This document shows, piece after piece, positions 4,100-45,531 of a DNA stretch of 64,000 nt. How positions within the stretch are numbered: position 1 is the stretch's first letter; each line of letters starts with the position of its first letter. Under the pieces are notes generated by a model that was given only the letters and a program-made list of their open reading frames with translations, did no database searches and was not told the DNA's origin. Location: positions 32,001-96,000 of the forward strand of contig CAVUPH010000013.1 of assembly GCA_963743305.1 (NCBI GenBank), read 5' to 3'. A program made the translations under genes and the position numbers. The DNA is from an uncultured delta proteobacterium. Lineage in GTDB: Bacteria; Desulfobacterota; RBG-13-43-22.

Positions 4100-4267
4100 T
4101 TTCCTTCCTGTTTCCTTAAGAAGATCCCGAGGTTGTCCAAGACGAGGGAAATTACCCTGCCGGCGCGGTTAAAGGGTACCGGTAAAACAACCGATCAATT
4201 AGTTAATTCTGGCCTATCCCTGCCGAAAGGACCGGGTTGGGCCTTCTTCATCTCCGTCTCAGAAAAT

Positions 4268-5775
4268 ATGCCGCTATTCGACAATAAAATCTTTTTCGCA
4301 GATATACTTCAGCGTATATTCCTCCCGAAGCCGTTTCTCTATCCTGATGAGGCCCTTGACGGACTGAATTATTGGCGGGAACGTATGGTACTGGCGGTGC
4401 TGGCCGCCGGAGGTTGGTTGTCGTTGTTAGCCCTGGCACCCGCCTTCTACCTGGCGCTGACGAGGGGACTATGGCTGCTGCTGATCGTCGATATCGTCGC
4501 CTTCCTCATTACGCTTAATCTGCTGATTTCCCATCGTTTCGGACTACGGACCCGGGCCTTGGCCGTGCTGCTGATTACCTTTACGGTAGGGGCGGTTATC
4601 ATTGTTCAGGTTGGATTTCTGAGCGCCGGCCCTGCCTGGCTCTTCTGTTTTTCAGTGCTGGCCGGTGTCTTTTTAGGGCTGAGAGGCGCGCTGGCGGCGA
4701 CCCTGCTGAACGCCGCTACGATCGTTTTGCTCGCTTGGTTCGTCTATCCCGGACAAGCAATGGAGCAGGAGTTTCTGATGTCCACCAGTCGGTCGATCAC
4801 GGCGGGGGCCAATTTCATCTTTCTCAACGGGGTGGCGGCGATTTCGGTGGCCGCCCTGGTAAACGGGCTGCTGGCGTCGAATCGGAAAACCGTTGCGGCC
4901 ACAGCCGCTTTGAAAGAGGAAAAGGCGGCTCTGCTGAAAACCAGGGAAAGCCTGAAGGAGGAGATTGCCGTCAGGAAGAATTCCGAGAAGGCTCTCCAGC
5001 GCAGTGAACGGCAATACCGTTTATTGGCTGAAAATATCAAGGATGTCATCTGGACCATGGACCTGAATTTCCGGTTCACCTATGTCAGTTCGGTGGTCGA
5101 AGCCATGCAGGGCTGGACACCGGAGGAGATGCTCGAATTAACCTTGGAGAACATCATGTCCCCTTCTTCGCTGGGAGCGGTTTTGGAGGTCTTCAACCGG
5201 GAATATGCTCTGGGGCAGCAGACAGGGGAACACAACCGTTCGGCCACAGTGGAACTCGAACTATTCCGGCGGGATGGCTCCAGGCTCTGGACCGAAGTGA
5301 CCGCCTCTTTCATTCTGGACGAGGAGGGCTTGCCCGTGGGCATACTTGGCGTCACCCGCGACATTTCCGAGCGACGAAAGGCCCAGGAAGAAAAAGAAAA
5401 ACTTTTGGAAAATTTAAATCAATCCCGAAAAATGGAAGCTATCGGCAGACTGGCCGGCGGGGTGGCCCATGACCTGAACAATGTCCTCTCGGGCATCGTC
5501 AGCTATCCCGATCTGCTCCTGCTGGACCTTCCGGAGGATAGCCCGAACAGAGGACCTCTGGAGACCATTCAGGAGTCAGGCAAAAAGGCAGCCGCGATCG
5601 TACAGGATCTATTGACGCTCGCCCGCCGAGGCGTGTCTGTTGCTGAAGTCCTCAATCTGAACGACCTCATTCGGGAATATCTGACCAGCCCGGAATTCAA
5701 ACAGTTGGAATCATTCCACCCGCTGGTGGTTCTTGATAGGCGTCTCGATCCGGCGATTAGGAGCATAAAGGCTCA
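4268..5775 (+). pseudogene. membrane PAS sensor histidine kinase truncated after HisKA (no HATPase domain)
   Basis: TM helices, PAS domain and H-box GGVAHDLNN are present. The ORF collides with the convergent gene before any N/G boxes. Confidence 0.75.
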
Positions 5776-7130
5776 TTGCCCATATCCCGCATCAGGCTCG
5801 TAAAGGCCTCCACGCATTCCGGGCATAGTTGCCGGCCCTGTTCCTCTTCAATGATTTCCATGGCCCGCTCGTGGCTCAAGGCCCGCCGATAGGGACGATC
5901 GCTGGTCAGGGCGTGATAGGTGTCGGCCACCGCCGTCATTCTGGCCCAGAGCACTATTTCTTCCCCTTTAATCCCATCCGGATAGCCGCCGCCGTCAAAA
6001 CGCTCATGGTGATGAAGGATGACCGGAAGCAGCGGTTTAATGCTGGGAATCGAACCTAAAATGGAGGCGCCGATAACCGGATGTTTTCGGATGACCGCGA
6101 ATTCTTCCGTGCTGAGGCGGCCGGGTTTCAAAAGGATGTGGTCGGGAATCCCGATCTTGCCGATATCATGCAGCCTTCCGGAGATGCCCAGGGATTCGAT
6201 TTCTTCCGGACGGGCATTCATATGGGCGGCCATCTTGGTCACCAGCAGGGCGACGTCCTCGGAATGTCCCCGGGTGTAGTGATCACGGGCCTCGAGGGCC
6301 ACGATCAGGCTGGTGATGCCGGCGAGCATCATTTTTTGTTCCAGATCCAGCCGCTCCCGTTCCTTGAGCAAAAGGAGAAAATGGTCCGAGATCAGTTTCT
6401 CCACGGTGATGACCGCCTGTTCCAGATTAAAGGGCTTGACCAGATAGCCCGCCGCGCCCCATTGCAGCAGTTGCCGCATGACGGCCCGATCGTTATTGGA
6501 GCTCATGACGACAAAAGGAATGGTGCCCAGATCGGGGTCCCCGTGAAGTTTTCGGCAGAGGTCGAGCCCGTTCATCCGGGGCATACCGAGGTCGCTTAAG
6601 ATCAGGTCCGGCCGGCGCTCCGCGATCCGTTTTAAGGCCTGTTTTCCGTCTTCCGCCTCCATGACCTGAAAACCCGCCTCTTCCAGGGCCTGGGTTACCC
6701 GTTGGCGGATATTCGGCGAATCGTCTACCACCAGGACCAGGCGGCTGCGGTGAAATCTGCTTTTCTCGAGGACCCGTTCGATGGTTTCGTTCAGAAGGGC
6801 CTGGGCCTCCGATTTGGAAACATAGGCGGCGGCCCCCACATTGAAGCCCTGTTCCACATCCCGGTCCGTATCCAGGGAACTGAGGATGATCACCGGGATA
6901 CTCCGGGTGACGGGATCGTTCTTCAACTGGGCGCAGAGGCCGAACCCGTCCAGACGGGGCATTTCCACATCGGAGATGATCAGGTCGAAACTCCCGGAAA
7001 AGGCCTTCTCCAGCCCCTCCCACCCGTCTTCCGCCTGAGTGACCCGGGCCCCGAATTTCTCCAGTTGCCGGGTCAGGGCCTTGCGGATGATCGAGCTGTC
7101 ATCGACGATGAGTATCTTGGGTAAATTCAT
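5757..7130 (-). CDS. tandem-REC HD-GYP cyclic dinucleotide phosphodiesterase
   Basis: Two receiver domains (ILIVDD...DVEMP; VLVVDD...DLGMP), LHDIGK, HHHERFDGGGYP. Confidence 0.92.
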   Translation of the reverse strand: MNLPKILIVDDSSIIRKALTRQLEKFGARVTQAEDGWEGLEKAFSGSFDLIISDVEMPRLDGFGLCAQLKNDPVTRSIPVIILSSLDTDRDVEQGFNVGAAAYVSKSEAQALLNETIERVLEKSRFHRSRLVLVVDDSPNIRQRVTQALEEAGFQVMEAEDGKQALKRIAERRPDLILSDLGMPRMNGLDLCRKLHGDPDLGTIPFVVMSSNNDRAVMRQLLQWGAAGYLVKPFNLEQAVITVEKLISDHFLLLLKERERLDLEQKMMLAGITSLIVALEARDHYTRGHSEDVALLVTKMAAHMNARPEEIESLGISGRLHDIGKIGIPDHILLKPGRLSTEEFAVIRKHPVIGASILGSIPSIKPLLPVILHHHERFDGGGYPDGIKGEEIVLWARMTAVADTYHALTSDRPYRRALSHERAMEIIEEEQGRQLCPECVEAFTSLMRDMGNEPLCS

Positions 7131-7289
7131 GATCAGGGGTCTGGCCGGGAACGGTCCTTTCCACCGGAACAATCAAATTACGGCATCGAATTATTCTCGG
7201 CAGTTTGAAATGTTTACTTTAATCGGATGTCCTTTAGTGTCGCCCGGCACTCTATAGCAGTCTCATAATTGAAGCAACCTCATTTAGTC

Positions 7290-7319
7290 TTGATTTTTTA
7301 TACGCCAATGGCGTATAGT
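7290..7319 (+). promoter_or_regulatory. TA promoter with palindromic operator
   Basis: TTGATT...TATAGT enclosing the perfect inverted repeat TATACGCCA-a-TGGCGTATA (7299-7317). Confidence 0.6.
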
Positions 7320-7324
7320 TGATC

Positions 7325-7405
7325 ATGCGTTTTATCGAAACTCCTATAGCGCAAATAAAGCTGCTAAGTAAGCTGGCAGATGAGGAGTTCCATGGAAAAA
7401 AGTAA
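7325..7405 (+). pseudogene. internally deleted RelE/HigB-type toxin
   Basis: 26-aa ORF MRFIETPI+AQIKLLSKLADEEFHGKK matches the typical N- and C-termini of HigB-2-like toxins. It overlaps the antitoxin start. Confidence 0.7.
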
Positions 7406-7682
7406 ATTCAACCGGTTGGTAGAAAGCATAAAGCAGGCCGGAAAAATAAAGCGGGGCGAGTTAAAACCGGAGAGAGAATTTCGTTTCAGCCCGGCCGATA
7501 TTAAAGAAATCCGATTGAACCTGCGTAAATCTCAGGCGGAATTTTCTCTGATGATCGGGGTAAGCGTCTCCACGCTTCAGAATTGGGAGCAGGGCCGGCG
7601 GGTCCCGGAAGGGCCCGCCCGGGCCCTACTTAAAATCGCCGCCGAAAAACCAGGGGCGGTTATAGAGGCCTTGAGTGGTTAA
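7392..7682 (+). CDS. XRE-family HTH antitoxin (HigA-2/NadS-like)
   Basis: SQAEFSLMIGVSVSTLQNWEQGRRVPEGPARALL; GAGGAG RBS. Confidence 0.88.
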   Translation: MEKSKFNRLVESIKQAGKIKRGELKPEREFRFSPADIKEIRLNLRKSQAEFSLMIGVSVSTLQNWEQGRRVPEGPARALLKIAAEKPGAVIEALSG

Positions 7683-8071
7683 TGGGGACTTTCTTCGGCT
7701 TGGCCCTATTCGTCGGAGGAAAATAGCAGGTAATAATTCACCGAATTCCCAACAGGGCAGAAATCCACCGACCTTTGATCACCTCCCGGTCGACTTTTCG
7801 TTTTGAAGATCTTACGGGATTCGATTCCCCGGCCCGTCACGTGGTGCAAGGCCCCGGGGACGTTCGGGCGAACACTAATCGAGGCTTGCTTTTTTCTTAA
7901 GTCCTTTTTACAACCACCGGCAAGTATATTCAGAAACTACGAACCCCTGTCTCTAATAGGATGTCCCCCTTTGTTCGATCCCGGACCTGGGAGCCGTACA
8001 CGGAAAAATGGGACAGCAACCGGTCACCGGCCTTCGCCCCTTTGACCAGCCATGTTAAGTATTTCTTGCGC

Positions 8072-8090
8072 TATTCGCGAATTGCGAATA
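8072..8090. promoter_or_regulatory. palindromic operator upstream of the HTH/NTase pair
   Basis: TATTCGC-gaatt-GCGAATA, 10 nt before ATG 8101. Confidence 0.55.
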
Positions 8091-8100
8091 TAAAACGGCC

Positions 8101-8612
8101 ATGAATCTTAAACCCCAGGACATCTATATCCTTTTGAAGCTCGTCGCACTGGGTGAAGGCCAGTGGTCTTATGCATCCGTGGCCGGCGATCTGTTCATGA
8201 GCGCCTCCGAGGTCCATGCCGGCATCAAGCGCGCCAGTTGCCGCTCGCCTGATGCATTCGCAAGGCGGACGCCCCTGAAAAAATCGCTGGAAGAATTCCT
8301 CATTCATGGCGTCAAGTATGCGTTCCCGCCGGACCATGGCGGACTGACCCGGGGCGTTCCTACGGGATATGCGGCGCCGCCGCTCAAGGACATCATTTCC
8401 CAGCCGAACGAACCGCCCCCCGTCTGGCCGGATCCGGAAGGCAATACCCGCGGCTATGAATTCTCGCCCCTGTACAAGACCGTCCCGAAGGCCGCATTAA
8501 AAGACAACAACTCTATGAATTGCTGGCGATCGTTGACGCCATCCGCGACGGGAGAGCCCGCGAAAGAGAAATCGCCATCAAGGAACTCAAGGCGCGATTG
8601 GGATCAGGATGA
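8101..8612 (+). CDS. winged-HTH protein, putative type IV (AbiEi-like) antitoxin; frameshifted
   Basis: MNLKPQDIYILLKL...EFLIHGVKYAFPP. The C-terminus LYELLAIVDAIRDGRARE lies in another frame after ~8505 and ends in an ATGA overlap with the next gene. Confidence 0.7.
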
Positions 8613-9324
8613 TCAATACCAGAGACATCAATATTCGGATGATCATCGCCGTGGCCAAACGTCTCGGCGATCTGAGGGACAAGGTCGTCTTCGTCGGGGG
8701 ATGCGCCACGGGATTGTTCATCACAGATCCCGCCATGCCGGAAGTCCGGGCCACCCAGGACGTGGATGTCATTGTCGAGGTCGCCTCGCGGATGGACTAT
8801 TACCGGCTTGAGGAAGAACTCAGGATCAGGGGCTTCAAACAGGACATGAGTGAGAATGCGCCGGTCTGCCGCTGGCTGGTGGATCGGATCAAAGTCGATG
8901 TCATGCCGACTCAGGAAGAGATCCTGGGGTTCTCCAACCGCTGGTATCTGCCCGCCATCAAGAACGCGGATCAGCTTCAATTGGAAGACGACCTGACCAT
9001 CAAGCTGGTCACGCCTCCCTATTTCCTGGCGACCAAGATCGAGGCCTTCAAGGGCCGCGGCGGCGGCGATTATATGGCCAGTCACGACATGGAAGACATC
9101 ATCACGGTCCTGGATGGCCGACCGGAAATCGTTTCGGAAATCAGAAGCTCATCGGATGATCTGAAGATTTTCTTATCCAGAACTTTCGAGGGCTTTTGGC
9201 AAAGGATGAATTCCGCGATTCGATTCCCGGCCATCTTCCCCCCGATCGTGCAAGCCAGTCACGATTGCCTCTGCTCATGAAATGCATCGAGGAGATATCA
9301 AAGATTCATGATTCTGTGCGGTAA
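8609..9324 (+). CDS. nucleotidyltransferase, AbiEii-like putative toxin; frameshift near 9188
   Basis: VFVGGCATGL, RATQDVDVIV, ATKIEAFKGRG and SHDMEDI motifs. Tail DSIPGHLPPD..SQSR is in the shifted frame. Confidence 0.78.
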
Positions 9325-9549
9325 AATTTGCATTGGGTATAGTGCGGAGTGCAGAGCGTAGCGTTTAAAAGACATTTATCGGACACTAAAACGCCTACCG
9401 CAAAGGAACCCCCGCCGGAGGCCGGGCATTTCTTCTTTTGCTTCTGTCTTCCCTTTGGTCATTGTCTCCATACCCCCTGACAGAGTTGCTTACTCGTCTG
9501 GGATTTCCTTGACAGCTACGGGTGGAGCCGCTATGATCTTGGTGATGTC

Positions 9550-10470
9550 TTAGAGGTGCTGGTAGTTGTCTTTCAGCCATCTCAAGTAGTAGCCAGTACT
9601 GAACAAGTAGTCCTCGTTGAGCTTTGCCTTTGCATCTATGAACGCGCATACGGCATATATCACTTCAGGTCTTGATTCCACCTGGAGTATTGAGTAGGAA
9701 AAAGCCAATTTCTCTTCGTCAGTCTCTTTCCCGTCTGACAGAAACTCCACAACATAAACAATCCTTCGGTCATGTGGAACTTTCGGATAGTTCTTGACGT
9801 ATTCAGCCCTCTTCCAATTTTCCATTTCGTTGAACCCATAGTACCTGGCATCTTTCCTACGATTGAGTCCCCAGTAATCCGAAGTTACCGCCTCGTAGTC
9901 TGCGCGCAGTTGACTAAGGATGGGTCTCAACTGTTTTTCGGCGATGACCCTAATTCTAGCGTTTGTACTATGGGACATGGCCCAGAGCTTCCTTAAGGCC
10001 CGGACATCATGAGACGCACTGATGGCAGCGACGCTGACATCAACCAGCAAGGAGAGATCATCCAACAATGCTTGAGTTGACGAAGCTACAGTTTGCGCCC
10101 TCAAGGCTTCCGTTGTTGCAGATTGAGCGATGCGCAGTGCATCTTTGGCCTTAATCTTTTCTTTTTCAGCCTCATCCAGATTCCTCTTGGTTAGATAGAC
10201 ATTTGCCGCCGAAATGCATACCAAGATAATCGAAATACATGTGGAGACAACCAGAAGAACCTGGCCAAAGTAGTTCCAGACCCATTTCTGATGACCTCTG
10301 CAGGTTGGGCAGACTCTTGCAGAACTAGAGATGGACGAAGAACACCAACGGCAAAGCGTTGAGCTGCTTGCTGAATGTTCGGCAATCTCCTGCGTTTCTG
10401 CAGAAGAGATCGCCGTCCCATCAGGCTCCGGATCGTCGTAAAGTAGTCCATTTCTATCTTCCTTACTCAC
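9550..10470 (-). CDS. hypothetical cassette protein: Zn-ribbon, TM helix, coiled coil, unknown C-terminal domain
   Basis: CRWC...CPTC, hydrophobic stretch, Ala-rich heptads. Starts just after an attC core GTTGGGC. Confidence 0.75.
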   Translation of the reverse strand: MSKEDRNGLLYDDPEPDGTAISSAETQEIAEHSASSSTLCRWCSSSISSSARVCPTCRGHQKWVWNYFGQVLLVVSTCISIILVCISAANVYLTKRNLDEAEKEKIKAKDALRIAQSATTEALRAQTVASSTQALLDDLSLLVDVSVAAISASHDVRALRKLWAMSHSTNARIRVIAEKQLRPILSQLRADYEAVTSDYWGLNRRKDARYYGFNEMENWKRAEYVKNYPKVPHDRRIVYVVEFLSDGKETDEEKLAFSYSILQVESRPEVIYAVCAFIDAKAKLNEDYLFSTGYYLRWLKDNYQHL

Positions 10471-10493
10471 TTCTCGTTTCCCCGTCTTCTATT

Positions 10494-10553
10494 GCCCAAC
10501 TGTTGAACTGTGCGGCGCGGCTTATTTGCGTCCTCTCCAGTGATTGTTTGGGT
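10494..10553 (-). mobile_element. integron attC site (degenerate), downstream of mrr
   Basis: Minus strand ACCCAAA-caatca-CTGGAGAGGACGC...GCGCCGCACAG-ttcaaca-GTTGGGC, 2 nt after the stop codon. Confidence 0.75.
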
Positions 10554-10555
10554 GA

Positions 10556-11419
10556 TCATTTCTTGTAGTCTTCGAAGAATTTCTCATCAATTTCGTAAGT
10601 TCGCACCGGGATAAGACCCAGTTCGAGACGTTCGAATATATCGACAAGATTGTCCCCATCTACAAGTTCGATAGGCGGGACCCCATCTCGCCGGGACTCT
10701 TTTTTTGCGTCAAGCGTGAATGTGCCCGTGGTTATGATCAGACCCTTATCGGCACGCCCCATCATCGCACCGCGAAAATCTCGAACATGCGAGGGAGTGA
10801 CGGCACCTTGATATCGTTTACACTGGAAGAGGACGTTGAAGCTCACGAAGGGATTCACTTGGAGAGTACCGACACCGTCAATGCCCCCATCACCGCTCTT
10901 TCCTGTAACAGACACGTGCTGAAACCCAGATTCCCGGAGCAGTCTCTGGCTAAGTCTTTCGAATCCGCTCGGGGACAATGACTTGATCAGTTCAAGGAGT
11001 GCTGTTCTGTAGTCCCTCTCTTCAGTTTTAACGGCCACCGGGTCATCTGCTTGCTGCGCTTCTTGCCTCTTTGTGTTCTTTAACTCGGCACGGCTGCTCT
11101 GGACGCTCTTGAATAGCTCAAGTTCTTTGAACGCGGAAAGGTTTATTGACCAACCCTTGTCCGTAAGGCCCCACACACCTCTCTTCGAGGAATCCAAATA
11201 ATTCGCCCAAACGAGATACTGGCGTGCCCAATGCACTTGGTTTTTCACTCGTGAGAGGCCGTTTTTGTTGACGGCTTCCTGTTCGGCCTCCGTAACCTCG
11301 GCAAGTTCCAAAGACCGGTCGACAATTTCCGAGGCCGTTCCGGACCCACCAGACTCCTTTAATACCTGTAGAATTGGTCGAAAGAAACGGATGAATTCCG
11401 GACCCTTTGCTTGTCTCAT
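10556..11419 (-). CDS. mrr: Mrr type IV restriction endonuclease
   Basis: Mrr_N domain (NQVHWARQYL...SKRGVW) and catalytic GKSGDGGIDG...FQCKRY...VRDFRGAM. Confidence 0.93.
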   Translation of the reverse strand: MRQAKGPEFIRFFRPILQVLKESGGSGTASEIVDRSLELAEVTEAEQEAVNKNGLSRVKNQVHWARQYLVWANYLDSSKRGVWGLTDKGWSINLSAFKELELFKSVQSSRAELKNTKRQEAQQADDPVAVKTEERDYRTALLELIKSLSPSGFERLSQRLLRESGFQHVSVTGKSGDGGIDGVGTLQVNPFVSFNVLFQCKRYQGAVTPSHVRDFRGAMMGRADKGLIITTGTFTLDAKKESRRDGVPPIELVDGDNLVDIFERLELGLIPVRTYEIDEKFFEDYKK

Positions 11420-11433
11420 ATCATCCTCTTGTC

Positions 11434-11498
11434 ACCCAAGACTAAGCTAAGCGGCGTGGCGACTTTTTGCCTCGTCCGTCTTGAGCGATCTGTTAGGC
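11434..11498 (-). mobile_element. integron attC site, at the 3' end of the DUF2442 gene
   Basis: Minus strand GCCTAAC-agatcg-CTCAAGACGGACG...CGCCGCTTAG-cttagtc-TTGGGT. The G of the GTT core is missing. Confidence 0.78.
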
Positions 11499-11749
11499 GC
11501 TGTTTTTCCATTGGTCCACAGTTCATATTCACTCAGGTCAATATCATCACTCCACGAAATACCATAACCTCCCGGATCGACGTGAACAGCATTGAAAAAA
11601 GCAGGGTTCGCAAGTAAGTGAAATTGCGGTCTGGAAAGGAGAGGACCACAATCATAGATTTTTTTAATTCCGCCCTCGAAAGTGACAAGTAGTAGCGCTT
11701 CTCCTATGGTTTTTACAGCTTTAATTTTTGGTATCTTTTCCATTTTCAA
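11447..11749 (-). CDS. DUF2442 domain protein
   Basis: LLVTFEGG..KIYD, FNAVHVDPGGYGISWSDDIDLSEYELW. Confidence 0.82.
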   Translation of the reverse strand: MKMEKIPKIKAVKTIGEALLLVTFEGGIKKIYDCGPLLSRPQFHLLANPAFFNAVHVDPGGYGISWSDDIDLSEYELWTNGKTAPNRSLKTDEAKSRHAA

Positions 11750-11874
11750 TGATCTGCTTTGATACGAGAATAAAGCCGAGATCCTCTCATTCCGGCGGCA
11801 TGGGAGCCGCCTCTGCTAAGAGGTATTCCCAAGCTATTCGCCCTACCCAGCAGAGTGGACTCCCGCTCCCGCGG

Positions 11875-12126
11875 TTTTCGCGTTTCGTGGGTGCTCAGAC
11901 GGGCATGGGATTTTAATACGAAAATTAAATCAAACCCCGCATTCAAGTCTTTGTTTTCGTCGTCATGCCGGGCTCGATCCGGCATCCAGGGCAATGGAGC
12001 TTAACCGGACTGGATTCCGGCTGGAGTTTACCCCGATCTTGAGGCGGGGCCAGAATGACTACCTTTTTCCTGACCAAGCTTTATTTCCATGATCCGCGAG
12101 TGCCCGCCCTGGGCATGGGGGTTCAA
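11875..12126. repeat. cluster of intergenic palindromic elements
   Basis: Two ATGCTTCGCG-hairpin motif copies (11875-11916, 12083-12126) flank a GTCATGCCGG..ATCCAG/CTGGATTCCGG..GAATGAC REP-like palindrome (11962-12059). Confidence 0.6.
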
Positions 12127-12196: not shown

Positions 12197-12236
12197 AAAA
12201 AAGGGGCCAACCCCGCTTCGATGGGGTTGGCCCCTT
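12197..12236 (-). terminator. intrinsic terminator after tRNA-Pro
   Basis: AAGGGGCCAACCCC / GGGGTTGGCCCCTT stem followed by a T-run on the minus strand. Confidence 0.8.
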
Positions 12237-12244
12237 GATTTTTC

Positions 12245-12321
12245 TGGTCGGGACGACTGGATTTGAACCAGCGGCCCCCTGAACCCCATTCAGGTGCGCT
12301 ACCAGTCTGCGCCACGTCCCG
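12245..12321 (-). tRNA. tRNA-Pro(GGG)
   Basis: CGGGACGTGGCGCAGACTGGTAGCGCACCTGAATGGGGTTCAGG...GGTTCAAATCC...CCCGACCA; 77 nt with encoded CCA. Confidence 0.97.
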
Positions 12322-12415: not shown

Positions 12416-12514
12416 GTCATTGCGACCCCGGACTGGATCCGGGGGAAGCAATCCCGTTCTTGGCAAGTGGCTGAATATTGGGGATTGCTTCGTCGCTTCA
12501 CTCCTCGCAATGAC
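12416..12514. repeat. REP-like palindrome (GTCATTGCGA family)
   Basis: GTCATTGCGA..GAAGCAATCCC / GGGATTGCTTC..CTCGCAATGAC. Confidence 0.85.
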
Positions 12515-12601
12515 AGGTTTAGGGGCTTAATGCGAGTTAATCAAAGACGTACTCCCCAAAGGTTCTTATGGGCCGGACCGGAAATCTCCGGTGAACCGAA
12601 C

Positions 12602-14262
12602 CTATTGTTTCAGAACAGTGGGGAAAAACAAGGAGGAAACACACCCCGGCGCCCGGAAGGCCCCAATGCGGGAATTCCATTGAGAGGGACTGGTGGCGTT
12701 ATAGTACTCTCCGGTGTACCAGAAGGTGCAGTTATCCACCGGATCCACGGTCATAGCGCTGTAATCCCCCCAACGGTTGCTTCCTGTTTGCACTCCGCCC
12801 CCGGCTACCAGGACGGCTTCGCTTCCCAGGACCCCTGGCAGGTCGGATTCCCGGCGGGTGGTATAGCGCAGGTCCGGGAAGATAGTCGATCCGGAAACGC
12901 TATAGCCCAGGGCGATATTTCCGGAACCGTCCAGGGCGATGCTGCCCATAAAGCGGTGGAGGCTGTCCGGGGCAAAGGTCCCTTCCTGGTACAGGAACCA
13001 ATCCCCGGTGGTCCGACGCAGCTCAAACCAACGGATCCCGGCCTGGCCGCCGCCGGCATCCACCGTAAAATTGCCCACCAGGGCTTCGTGGGAGGCGAAG
13101 CGGCGATAAGGCAGCCGCCACATGGGCCATTCGGAGACCGCGTCCACGAGCGATCCGGGGGCCCTTGGGGGATGCAGTCTTGAATGAAGAATCCGCAGAC
13201 CGTATATTTGAAATCGGCAATCGGCAGGATCAGCGGGGCTGAAAAGGTCGAGTTCGCGGTATTGACCCAGTCGGCATGGAAAGAACGAAGTTCCAGACGG
13301 TTGGTGGTGACCCCGTGAGCCGGGAAGTCTTTATTTTTAAAGGTATAAAAATGGCCCGGGGCATTGGCGGGAGGGGGGATCTTTCCATCCACGGTGGCCG
13401 GCATCAAAAAGTTCGTTTCTCCGGTAAAGCGGATGAACTGGGCCGCTTGGCCCAGGAGCATCTTGTCGCGCTCCAGGGCATAGGCGCTGTAGGTCGTTTC
13501 GTTGGCGCTTACATAGTAGGCGTCGGGCCAGACTCCCAGTTTAAAATAATCCGGGCCTTCCGGGAAGGTAAATTCATAAAGATGATAGGCTCCGGTCGGG
13601 TCCGAAGTTCGCGAGACGGCCACACACAACCCGAAGGGCGCGGTTAATCTGAACTGGGCCAGGACCCAGCGGTCAGCCAGGGCGTCGAAGACCACCACCG
13701 GATCTCCGTCATTCGCGGCGGCGCACAGGCCTCCGGCCAGGCTCCACAAATCCTTAAAAAGGGTGGGAGCCTTGATGCGATTCCCCTTTTTGTCGTAGAT
13801 GCTGAAGTAGGTGTCATTGGTCATCTGGACATAGTGGCGAGGTCCCACCGCGCCTATGGGGTCCGGCGGGGTCACTGTGCCCAAGTTTCCAATCCCCTCT
13901 ACCGAAACCTGAGGAGGCGGGGTGAGCTGCAAAAGGAGAGAGGCCTTTTGCCGGACGGGATCATCCGCCGGGGCGGGTGGCGATAAGGCGCCGGTTAAAT
14001 CCGGACGGGGGTTGCGGCGAGGGGGCCGATCTTTTCCCGGGAGGCTGCCGATCCGGTCGGGCAAATCCCGAACCGCCGGACTCAACGCCGGATTTGACGA
14101 GACCCCCACCCAGGGCCCGGAAATTTGGGATGGGGTGATTTGATCTCCGGGATTAGTCTGGGCCTGGGAAAAACCGGATAGCGAGGTCAGGAGCAGGACT
14201 GAGATAAAGATTACCGGAAACCCGCCGTGAGGTTGGCTTGCTTTGTCTGAAAAGAACTTCAT
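12602..14262 (-). CDS. secreted beta-rich hypothetical protein; frameshift near 13158
   Basis: Signal peptide, then PPDP.GAVGPRHYVQM, GDPVVVFD..ADRW and RWGDYSAMTVDP motifs split across two ORFs. C-terminal LFFPTVLKQ. Confidence 0.78.
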
Positions 14263-14640: not shown

Positions 14641-14784
14641 TGATGACCTCGCAAAAAGTCCAAAATCTGTCATTGCGAGCGAAGCGAAGCAATCCCCACC
14701 ATGGTAACTAGATGATTCTTGGGGATTGCTTCGTCGCTTCACTCCTCGCAATGACAGCGCTGGGGCCTTTTTGCGAAACCATCA
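14641..14784. mobile_element. MITE-like element with GTCATTGCGA palindrome cargo
   Basis: TGATGACCTCGCAAAAAGTC ... CTTTTTGCGAAACCATCA flanked by ATTT/ATTT. Cargo is nearly identical to 283-369. Confidence 0.72.
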
Positions 14785-14882
14785 ATTTTGGACCTTCGTG
14801 CTTTTTTCGGATTTCGTGCTTCGAATTTCTAAATTATAGGTCCTCTTGTTCAAAGGGCAGAGATACATTTTCAGACTTAGGG

Positions 14883-31235: not shown

Positions 31236-31415
31236 TTAACCCTCCAGGCCCGGGATGGGCGCCCCGAAGCCTGAAAATAGAATGGTATACGGGTCATTGC
31301 GAGGGGCGAAGTGACAAAGCAATCCCCCCATTGAGCTTGGGGATCGTTGCAGGCAAACTGGGGGATTGCTTCGCCTCGCTCGCAATGACAGGCGTGTGCG
31401 GTGGCATTTTCGTAT
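31236..31415. repeat. hairpin-motif copy (31236-31279) plus GTCATTGCGA palindrome (31293-31389)
   Basis: Direct comparison with the other copies in the window. Confidence 0.75.
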
Positions 31416-31446: not shown

Positions 31447-32415
31447 GTGAACACAGTCCAATTTCTGTTCAAAGAAACAACCATTGACTTGAAGGACATT
31501 GACTGGCGGGATACCACCTTTCAAGTCTCCTACGGCCGTTCCCTGCAACCCCTCAAGACATCTATCCAGGTCATCGGGCTTCAGCAGCTTCCTGTCCTGC
31601 AGGAGAGGGGGGGTGAAAGGCTGCGCATTGTTTCCGGGCGCCGAAGGCTTTTGGTCTGGAAACAGCTCCCTCGATCGGACTGCCCGGTCCGGTTGGTTTC
31701 CGCCGATCAGCCGGAAAAGGAACTTTTTCTCTATTGTTTCTATGAAGCGATCGGCCGGGGCGCGCTCAATGTCATTGAACAGGCGGTGGTCCTGGAAAAA
31801 CTGCTAAGGTATTTTCCGGAAGACCGGGTCCTCTCCGACTATCTGCCTTTACTGGGCCTGGCCCCCAAAATGGAAATCCTGCATCGCTACCTGCGGATAG
31901 CCGCCGCCGGTCCCTGGATTTGGCCGGCGGTCGTCGAGGGGAAACTATTTCCGGAAACCCTGGAAGGGATCGACCGGGATTTTCCCGCTCTCCGCGAATT
32001 GCTCGCCTCTGTGCTGATCCATTTGCGGTGGGGCTTCCAAAAACAAAGGGAATTCCTGGCCGGCCTGAAGGAATTGGCCCTGAGGCAGGGGGTCAAGCCC
32101 GAAAAAATACTCAGCGCTCCGCCCCTAATAGAATGGCTGAAAGGCGGGGATTTAAGTCCCCAGCAGCAAGGGGAGGCCATTCGAAAGTTCCTTCACCAAG
32201 CGCTTTTTCCGGTCTCCACGGAAACGGAAAAAGAATTCAACGAAAAACGGGCCCGGATGAAACTGGATCCCCGGACCCAATTGACGCCGCCGCCCTTTTT
32301 TGAAGGTGGAACCTATCGGCTGGATGTGCGGTTTTCAGAGAATAAAGATTTGAAAGCGTCCCTGGATCGGATCCAACGCGCACTCGAATCCGGTTGTTTC
32401 GAAGACCTGCCATGA
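31447..32415 (+). CDS. ParB/Srx N-terminal domain protein
   Basis: L..SI..IGLQQLPVL...RIVSGRRRL followed by a helical region; no adjacent parA. Confidence 0.75.
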   Translation: MNTVQFLFKETTIDLKDIDWRDTTFQVSYGRSLQPLKTSIQVIGLQQLPVLQERGGERLRIVSGRRRLLVWKQLPRSDCPVRLVSADQPEKELFLYCFYEAIGRGALNVIEQAVVLEKLLRYFPEDRVLSDYLPLLGLAPKMEILHRYLRIAAAGPWIWPAVVEGKLFPETLEGIDRDFPALRELLASVLIHLRWGFQKQREFLAGLKELALRQGVKPEKILSAPPLIEWLKGGDLSPQQQGEAIRKFLHQALFPVSTETEKEFNEKRARMKLDPRTQLTPPPFFEGGTYRLDVRFSENKDLKASLDRIQRALESGCFEDLP

Positions 32416-43668: not shown

Positions 43669-45175
43669 TTACTTCGGACCGAAGGCATCGGAGCGGTCTT
43701 CAGGGACCACCGCCTCAAGTTTAACGGAACGGGGTTTAGGCGGACGTTTGACGACCGGGGGTTTTTTCGCCTTATCTTTTTTCATCCGGCTTTCTTTGGC
43801 GATCAGGTCCCGCAACTCCTTGATCCGTCCGTTGGCCTCATCATTGCCGGGCTCCAGCTCGAGGGCCTTGAGCAGATCGGCCATGGCCCTCGGATAGTCA
43901 GCCCGGGCTATTTTTATCTCCGCCCGTTCGGCATAGGCCGGGGCGTATTTGGGTTCCAGTTCGATGGCTTGATTGAAATCCGCCAGGGCACCCTCCAGGT
44001 CCCCTTGCTTCTCCCTGAGTTCACCCCGGGCCGTAAAAGCCTTGTGATTTTTGGGAGAGATTTCAATCGCCCGGTTGAAATCCGCCAGGGCCCCGCTGGA
44101 ATCGCCCAATTCCATCTTGATCTCCCCCCGGTTGCGGTGGGACCCGCTAATGTTCGGATTGATGGAGATGGCCTGGTTAAAATCCTTCAGGGCTTCCACC
44201 AATTTGTTGTCTTTAAATAGGATGACTCCCCGGTTGTGGTAGGCGTTCCAGGCCCCCCGAGGATCCTGGGCGATCGCCTGGCTGTAGTCCTTCAGCGCTC
44301 CTGTCGAATCGCCCTGCTTGGCCTTCAAGAAACCCCGAAAGTTGAAGGCCTGGCTGAAAAGTGGATTGAACTCGATCGCCTTATTGTAGTCGAGCAGTGC
44401 CCCTTCCGGATCGGACAGCCTTTCCTTCAGCCGGCCCCGGGCGAAGTAGGTGTTGGCCCCCCGAGGATCCAGTTCAATTGCCCGGTTAAAATCAGTTAAG
44501 GCGCCATTCAAATCGTTGGTCCTGAGCTTGACCTGTCCTCGGTTGTGGTAGGCCCCGGATAGCTTGGGATCGATACTCCAGAGCCCGGGAATGATCCGCC
44601 AGCGCCCCTTCCACATCATCCTTTCGTAGTTTCATGTAGCCCCGCATGGTATAGGGTGGGGCGTAATCAGGATTCAGCTCGATGGCCTGGTTCACGTCGA
44701 CCAAGGCGCCCTCATAATCCTCCATCAGGTATTTCAGTTCCGCCCGGTTGGCGAAATAGATGCTTTGGCTCTGCCGGGTAGCCTTCAGTTCAAGAGCGCG
44801 GTTGTAATCCGCCAGTGCCCCTTTGAAATCCCGCAGCCTTTTCTTCACTACGCCTCGACCGTTATATGCCGAGGCATAATTCGCGTCGAGTCCGATGGCC
44901 CGGGTGTAATCGGTCAAGGCCCCGGGCAGATCGTGATTCCTTTCCTTGGCCACGGCGCGGAGGCGGAAAAAAGTGGGGTTTTGGGAGTTTAGATTTATGG
45001 CCCGGCTGAATTCGGCGATTGCGTCTTCGAACCTCTTCTGGTCGAAATATTTAAGACCCCGGTCATAAAAAGTGTTCGCTTCCTTAGAGGATGGGGTCGT
45101 CTGCGCCGACAGGACCGGACAGAATCCGATCAACAACCCCCCCAAAAAAATCACCAGCAGAATAATTTGCTTCAT
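43669..45175 (-). CDS. exported tetratricopeptide repeat protein; frameshift near 44580
   Basis: Signal peptide and about 12 repeats of AY.NRG......GD..GAL.DY..AIEL.P across two ORFs. Confidence 0.88.
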
Positions 45176-45256: not shown

Positions 45257-45500
45257 TTAACCCCCACTCCCCGCCTGTGGGGAGCCCGCGAAGCATGGAA
45301 ATAGAAGGGCAGACCTAAAGCCTAAGTTTTTGACTTCAATAATTAATAATCAATTGTGACAATCTCGCAAAAGTCCAAAAACCTGTCATTGCGACCCCGG
45401 ACTTGATCCGGGGGAAGCAATCCCTACCATGGTAACTAGCTGATTCTTGGGGATTGCTTCGTCGCTTCACTCCTCGCAATGACAGCGCTGGGGACTTTTT
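45257..45500. repeat. hairpin-motif copy (45257-45303) and degenerate MITE with GTCATTGCGA palindrome (45385-45483)
   Basis: CTCGCAAAAGTCC ... GGACTTTTTGC around a palindrome with the same spacer as 283-369. Confidence 0.75.
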
Positions 45501-45531
45501 GCTGGTTATAGAGTCTATTTTTGTATTAAAC

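Follow-up and report, generated by a model that had tools for sequence, protein, structure and literature searches.

How did an mrr gene, predicted to encode a type IV restriction endonuclease, come to lie between two inverted repeats in the genome of an uncultured delta proteobacterium? It is the middle one of three co-oriented genes on the minus strand of contig CAVUPH010000013.1 (assembly GCA_963743305.1), within a stretch of 64,000 nucleotides (positions 32,001 to 96,000) that was analysed as a whole and is called the window here. A gene for a DUF2442 protein precedes it and an open reading frame (ORF) of 306 codons, ORF306, follows. An initial annotation, made from the letters of the sequence alone, had read the three genes as a decaying integron cassette array in a tRNA-linked defence islet. 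We find that the locus is very probably a cassette array with two attC sites and without an integrase, i.e., a minimal attC cluster that lacks an integrase (CALIN), which carries DUF2442, mrr and a presumably membrane-anchored protein of no known family. The features are collected in Table 1; positions are those of the window.

Table 1. Features of the cassette array and of its immediate surroundings.
Feature	Position	Strand	Remarks
ORF306, third cassette gene	9550-10470	minus	306 aa; no known family
attC of mrr cassette (supported)	10494-10553	minus	R' GTT intact; R'' shifted by one A
Complete mrr gene cassette	10500-11439	minus	940 bp, crossover to crossover
mrr	10556-11419	minus	Mrr_N + Mrr_cat; intact; own ribosome-binding site
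attC of DUF2442 cassette (supported)	11434-11498	minus; recombining bottom strand = plus	R'' intact, core G absent
DUF2442 gene, first cassette gene	11447-11749	minus	Pfam PF10387, E 5e-9; antitoxin-type, DhiA-like
PDC-M21A/B candidate defence pair	8101-9280	plus	regulator + AbiEii-like nucleotidyltransferase; PADLOC E 5e-28, 7e-73
Terminator-like hairpin	12201-12236		15-bp stem, T-runs on both strands; between tRNA and array
tRNA-Pro(GGG)	12245-12321	minus	neighbour, about 500 bp upstream of array

The mrr cassette and the two inverted repeats

The mrr unit opens with TTGGGTGA at 11439 (11432-11439), and its complementary end, TCACCCAA, is located at 10548-10555, directly past the mrr stop codon. 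This 8-nt complementarity, already seen in the initial annotation, was recovered here. The unit has the parts of a gene cassette, namely a single ORF between a crossover point and an attC and a 5' TTRRRY complementary to its own R'', and the boundary is conserved in relatives. The DUF2442 ORF enters its 65-nt attC by 52 nt, such that its last 16 codons and the stop codon lie inside the site, again as first annotated. According to PMC11511950, attC sites usually overlap the stop codon; PMC8876359 yielded nothing on this point.

The composition of the genes points in the same direction as the initial description of three genes less rich in GC. DUF2442, mrr and ORF306 have GC contents of 0.44, 0.51 and 0.48, with 0.554 for the window, and GC contents at third codon positions (GC3) of 0.39, 0.54 and 0.52, values that are exceeded by all 13 chosen chromosomal genes (0.63-0.82). 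The total GC content of mrr is no lower than that of two of these 13 genes.

Both repeats were scored as attC sites with two covariance models of our own, R1 and R2, which were built without the window and substitute for the attC model of IntegronFinder. R1 comprises 11 of 16 candidate sites from arrays adjoining an intI gene (loci L014, L081, L082 and L087-L089). The MAFFT alignment of all 16 sites (A4) was set aside; alignment A5 omits five of them, i.e., three dfr sites with other spacing and two near-duplicates from Thiodictyon. R2 was built from 38 R1 matches in 28 chosen loci. Its alignment covaries, with 143 cells that carry two-sided changes versus 53 in shuffles, though the alignment had been fitted to the model.

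The window was scanned on both strands with filters off, and the E-values are rough. With R1, the DUF2442 site (26.7 bits, E 2e-4) and the mrr site (15.3 bits, E 0.15) are the best two of five rows. R2 gives 30.6 bits (E 3e-5) and 22.1 bits (E 0.004), respectively, with the next match at 11.8 bits (E 1.3). Neither model scores any other place in the window below E 1. Both matches are full length, at gene ends and in the orientation that minus-strand cassettes should have; the sites share one strand and are 880 bp apart. An arm-profile scorer ranks the same two sites first and second of 638 tiles (24.4 and 21.9, next 14.2). The R2 alignments position the L box and both extrahelical bases with one to two mismatches per site, and the lengths of 60 and 65 nt are within the attC range of 55-141 nt. 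The attC anatomy that the initial annotation had recognized is hence borne out by R1, R2 and the arm-profile scorer, and of the two outcomes named there as jointly fatal the first, an attC covariance model that scores neither repeat, did not occur with our models. The sequence evidence supports both repeats as attC sites. The covariance scan of the window returned no third attC on either side of the array. Rfam finds two tRNAs in the window and nothing else, and a comparison of the window DNA with plasmids yielded pieces of mrr and DUF2442 only, without a match to an attC.

Relatives of Mrr and the search for an integrase

Whether close homologs of these genes are flanked by attC sites elsewhere had been proposed as a check, and for mrr this holds for some of the relatives. 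A genome scan for Mrr relatives gave at least 591 related stretches, of which the best 80 were retained (loci, numbered with an L). Their flanks were scored in a leave-one-locus-out manner, with the highest score among 160 within-gene controls serving as cut-off. An attC-like site flanks the gene at 19 of the 80 loci, on both sides at four of them. Attending to the 3' flank, 13 of 78 Mrr loci carry such a site, compared to 5 of the 322 gene ends that served as controls (p 9e-7, with loci that are not independent of each other); attC-like sites on the wrong strand amount to 10 out of 160.

An intI gene or a fragment of it occurs in four of the 80 loci (L010, L014, L036 and L047). L014 is a complete integron, whose integrase protein is 42% identical to IntI1. 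In L010 (8195-14312), a truncated intI is followed by an array with eight same-strand matches above 15 bits; its mrr cassette is 79% identical to the window Mrr, and one attC match (15.3 bits) follows directly after mrr. In L004, L005 and L011, the DNA resembles that of the window from the GTT crossover onwards and is unrelated ahead of it. L011 (9980-11770) resembles the window in gene content as well: an mrr gene without integrase is followed by an attC, an orphan HigA-like gene and a DUF2442-like gene that reads through its attC, and no intI is found in its 20.9 kb. The window DUF2442 and ORF306 were themselves not matched in any of the 80 loci. At the level of sequence, these comparisons show that mrr is a gene cassette and that integrons of other genomes carry members of this Mrr lineage as cassettes.

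Two details of the relatives are reported as such. In the deltaproteobacterial integron L014, a small ORF (8748-9098) separates intI from the first cassette, and L004 carries two perfect GCCTAAC...GTTAGGC palindromes (7102-7195) of 37 nt each, too short for an attC.

The integrase search covered 9.3 kb to the left of the array and 52 kb to its right. Pfam detects no tyrosine recombinase in any of the 256 stop-to-stop frames of at least 90 aa in the window (256 of 256 searched), and three IntI proteins and XerC, compared to the window by tblastn, gave nothing below E 1, i.e., no remnant of intI either. The initial statement that the window lacks intI stands. A CALIN is defined as at least two attC sites within 4 kb without an intI nearby (10.1101/030866; 10.1101/2022.02.28.482270). 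By our own covariance models, the locus has two same-strand attC sites within 4 kb; there is no intI within 4 kb and, as far as the window extends, no pseudogene of it within 10 kb, and the intI beside the array that would make a complete integron is missing. Within the window, CALIN status is therefore supported. The co-oriented genes of low GC content are a further trait in common with known CALINs. Unlike typical ones, the array has cores that are defective as assembled and lacks both outer boundaries, which places it at the eroded end of the class.

Several observations weigh against this interpretation. The strictly independent model R1 scores the mrr site weakly (E 0.15), and all E-values are rough and come from our own models in place of that of IntegronFinder. 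The folding energy of both sites, for which a check had been suggested at the outset, does not rise above that of dinucleotide shuffles (z -0.55 and -1.45). Of the 12 closest Mrr loci, nine have no scoring attC at either flank, several of them keeping the GTT leader or part of R''. The negative result on intI is limited to the window, 64 kb of a 295-kb contig, and no sigma-70 promoter was found on the minus strand between the terminator of the tRNA and mrr.

Alternatively, the repeats might be chance hairpins, repetitive extragenic palindromic (REP) elements or terminators instead of attC sites. The folding z-scores would fit such an explanation, as would the abundance of REP-like repeats in the window and the fact that a strict core regular expression, with eight rows over the window, includes neither site. 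It is at odds with three scorers that rank exactly these two sites on top, on the correct strand and at gene ends, with their absence from the repeat families listed for the window, and with the cassette context of the Mrr homologs. We regard this explanation as largely refuted and highly improbable.

Core lesions, outer cassettes and neighbouring genes

As assembled, both cores are damaged, just as initially described. In the DUF2442 site, the G of the GTT core is absent at 11440, where the relatives L004, L005 and L011 carry a G, and the R2 alignment is gapped at the core C. In the mrr site, both the covariance model and the alignment with relatives place R'' one A out of register, so that the core C:G pair fails. 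Neither site as assembled, possibly by assembly error, presents an AAC/GTT core with paired G:C, a pair retained in 37 of 37 scored training rows. For IntI1, a G1 mismatch between the partners cuts attC x attI1 recombination by a factor of 10^3-10^4 (PMC2811028); it speaks against a direct transfer of this value that the data concern IntI1 and attC x attI1, and neither the integrase of this host nor attC x attC. Because both assembled sites fail at the G:C core pair, mrr would be effectively fixed: the failure should lock it in place, and an IntI acting in trans would be expected to excise it poorly.

The assembly, or the genome itself, is prone to indels. Frameshifts split at least four conserved metabolic genes outside the islet (cbiO at about 3800, POR gamma at about 50250, a pyridine-nucleotide oxidoreductase at about 51680 and an FAD oxidase at about 58630), and about three further genes look split, probably at 13200-13330, 44500-44630 and 59800. 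A tblastn count with the locus proteins, which has low power, finds one frameshift site in the window. Such frameshifts elsewhere mean that the single-base core defects could be assembly errors as well, and they weaken any claim of a pseudogene. It may thus be that in the organism neither site is damaged, that both can recombine, and that an IntI encoded elsewhere in the genome uses the array as a live reservoir of cassettes. This would suit the fact that each core defect amounts to one base and that several shifts near the array sit in short homopolymers. The missing G, though, lies outside any homopolymer, and outside the islet visible shifts occur about once in 8-14 kb, far too rarely to hit both cores by chance. 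Moreover, mrr and DUF2442 are unbroken while the adjacent PDC-M21 pair has about four shifts, eroded R'' ends are also found in the close relatives L001, L003, L004 and L005, and both outer boundaries of the array are absent. Given the low background rate, the clean mrr and the eroded ends of relatives, we favour real decay of the cores and consider intact sites the clearly less probable case, though one to be kept in mind.

The outer cassettes lack one boundary each, in line with the initial annotation. Besides the missing third attC, we found no cassette 5' end complementary to the R'' of the DUF2442 site. DUF2442 has 636 homologs, the best at 90%. The attC-encoded tail motif of the window protein is common to 37 of 115 homologs with a recognizable domain end, and 21 share the full end; judged by these protein tails, such homologs may read into an attC, too. 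DUF2442 is the antitoxin of DhiTA, a type II toxin-antitoxin (TA) system of DUF4160 and DUF2442 (PMC8198452), and the window gene shares this antitoxin domain. It differs from DhiTA in its attC-encoded C-terminal tail and in that no DUF4160 toxin gene lies directly upstream: the six upstream frames gave no Pfam match at all, and the sole match of a profile search there was to the first 38 residues of the upstream ORF, which derive from a repeat.

ORF306 has 20 homologs, the best at 84%. Its layout consists of a CxxC-CxxC zinc-ribbon-like motif, a hydrophobic helix, long helices and a helical C-terminal domain, and the predicted model is all-helical (pLDDT 78). Foldseek returned no PDB match at E<=0.001, and no Pfam, NCBIfam or PADLOC family was assigned; the best Atlas matches (0.84 and 0.79) are unnamed or weak. 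Most likely it is a membrane-anchored protein, and an accessory role is our guess. Compared to its closest homolog, it has a frameshift near 9565 that alters the C-terminus and displaces the last codons, and an attC of its own was not found. By eye, nine of the 20 homologs have a short tail in common that could be attC-encoded.

Where the third attC would be expected, there is an unexplained stretch of 190 bp (9335-9520) with a 28-codon ORF that ends in a Cys-Gly-Arg-Arg motif. Plasmids gave chance matches only for 9300-9560. An IS91/ISCR oriIS end at 9335-9480, suggested by a motif, was considered and rejected: one 8-mer, which also occurs in four unrelated loci, is common with ISCR1, and the best match of IS91 proteins (E 0.017) is over the PDC-M21B gene.

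The PDC-M21A/B pair is convergent with the array and has no attC. Three of its frameshifts are in short homopolymers and two compensate each other within 30 nt. The pair is also present in locus L022. At 7330-7682 (plus) lies a HigA/NadS-like helix-turn-helix gene, an orphan antitoxin, likewise on the other strand from the array and without attC. The stub before it resembles, in our estimation, the N-terminus of a RelE/HigB toxin, and 7790-7880 (minus) what we take to be the N-terminus of a REP-associated tyrosine transposase (RAYT); neither has a Pfam match. The term defence islet thus holds loosely, insofar as these neighbours match defence and antitoxin families; their opposite strand and lack of attC sites set them apart from the array. 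Palindromic intergenic repeats, presumably REP-like, form families at 276-404, 12421-12549, 14662-14790, 45390-45518, 31290-31390 and about 11960-12060, and another genome contains a stretch that closely matches 11880-12090. Further off, a histidine kinase (4133-5803, plus) ends after HisKA, without an ATPase domain, and overlaps the end of a convergent response regulator (5757-7172, minus); this arrangement is a deletion or a misassembly.

The initial label tRNA-linked did not survive beyond proximity, and integration at tRNA-Pro is not supported. An integrated island would show a duplicated tRNA 3' end and an integrase. The 3' end is not duplicated in the window (23 nt, up to three mismatches), where a single 10-mer at 2487 is the only match, no integrase is present, and the hairpin separates tRNA and array. 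A genomic island inserted at tRNA-Pro by a phage-type integrase nevertheless has some points in its favour: the tRNA is upstream on the same strand, remnants of defence and TA genes extend from 7300 to 11750, and a tRNA is found within 3 kb at five of the 80 Mrr loci, among them L076 (1177-1297), where an mrr relative starts 43 bp behind tRNA-Pro on the same strand. Considering also the host-like GC3 of PDC-M21B (0.73), we judge such an island improbable.

The enzyme, the origin of the array and its meaning

Pfam assigns Mrr_N (E 2e-20) and Mrr_cat (E 2e-30) to the Mrr protein, and PADLOC matches it to mREase_IV (E 2e-20). An alignment of 34 sequences, chosen from 120 listed, has D181, Q199 and K201 invariant in all of them, giving the PD-QxK catalytic residues, and the MspJI structure 4f0p is a match at E 4e-4. 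Judging from domains and residues, Mrr is an intact type IV, i.e., modification-dependent, restriction endonuclease. With its winged helix and PD-QxK nuclease, it would restrict incoming DNA with foreign methylation, if transcribed. EcoKMrr (PMC12707154) shares the winged-helix Mrr_N, Mrr_cat and the intact PD-QxK residues; unlike it, the window Mrr is carried on a cassette. The protein belongs to a tight clade of 287 aa, 75-94% identical and mostly on short contigs; phages yielded just two distant matches.

How the array may have arisen can be sketched as follows. By recombining bottom strands at G/TT, an IntI would have joined the DUF2442 module, mrr and ORF306 together at an attI. The array would then have lost contact with intI and attI, by loss or rearrangement, and erosion would have removed both outer boundaries and the toxin partner of DUF2442. 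High excision makes TA cassettes lethal to the cell (PMC13108822); it is therefore plausible that the toxin was lost after IntI had disappeared.

Alternatively, the cassettes may have entered by insertion at a genomic attG site and eroded afterwards (10.1101/2022.09.11.507474). There would then be no relic of a local integron, and IntI would have inserted them at a chromosomal GWT just downstream of the tRNA. This is a published route for small CALINs (same source), no intI pseudogene is near, and several relatives (L005, L011) begin at the crossover, preceded by unrelated AT-rich DNA and lacking an intI within 10 kb. The array resembles such genomic insertions, termed single attC sites lacking an integrase (SALIN), as chromosomal cassettes without intI or attI; it differs by two attC sites instead of one, and no clean G/WT junction was found. 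A clean insertion should moreover have kept the 5' end of the first cassette and the attC of the last, neither of which is visible. We see entry at attG as possible but rather doubtful.

Going one step further than decay, the locus may record the domestication of a defence cassette: the core defects would be real, the integrase and the guarding TA toxin lost, and mrr locked in place by the G:C lesions while itself remaining intact, a path that seems to have been repeated in the clade. Proposed parallels are L011, with its toxin-less DUF2442, and L004, L005 and L001/L003, with cassette scars and eroded attC sites. We offer this scenario tentatively, as one that is rather unlikely to hold in full.

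Much of this falls into known classes. Deltaproteobacterial attC sites are a known class (PMC8352920), 2961 CALINs were reported in 21,105 genomes with the smallest size class as the commonest (1362; 10.1101/2022.09.11.507474), and type II and IV restriction systems are said to be prevalent in integrons (10.1101/2024.07.02.601686). As in the anti-phage cassettes of sedentary chromosomal integrons (same study), a small single-gene defence system sits in a cassette here; unlike in those, there is no integrase platform in the window, two attC sites stand against more than ten, and the host is not Vibrio but, by its gene content, presumably an anaerobe of deltaproteobacterium-like type. In a literature search that was thin on subscription journals, we found no paper on DUF2442 with integrons, none that joins CALIN, tRNA and defence island, and no title or abstract on an mrr cassette in a CALIN.

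Both CALINs with two sites and cassettes with restriction genes are known already; the element is real but a common kind of leftover, and one more CALIN changes little because the class is common. It clearly exemplifies the delivery of a type IV restriction enzyme into an environmental bacterium's chromosome by an integron cassette, and the cassette-borne Mrr clade is a candidate for anti-phage activity. If the core lesions are real and recurrent across the clade, they would show how mobile defence cassettes become fixed genes. Should the domestication scenario be true, integrons would repeatedly supply Desulfobacterota/Nitrospirota-like bacteria with type IV restriction genes that become fixed in the chromosome.

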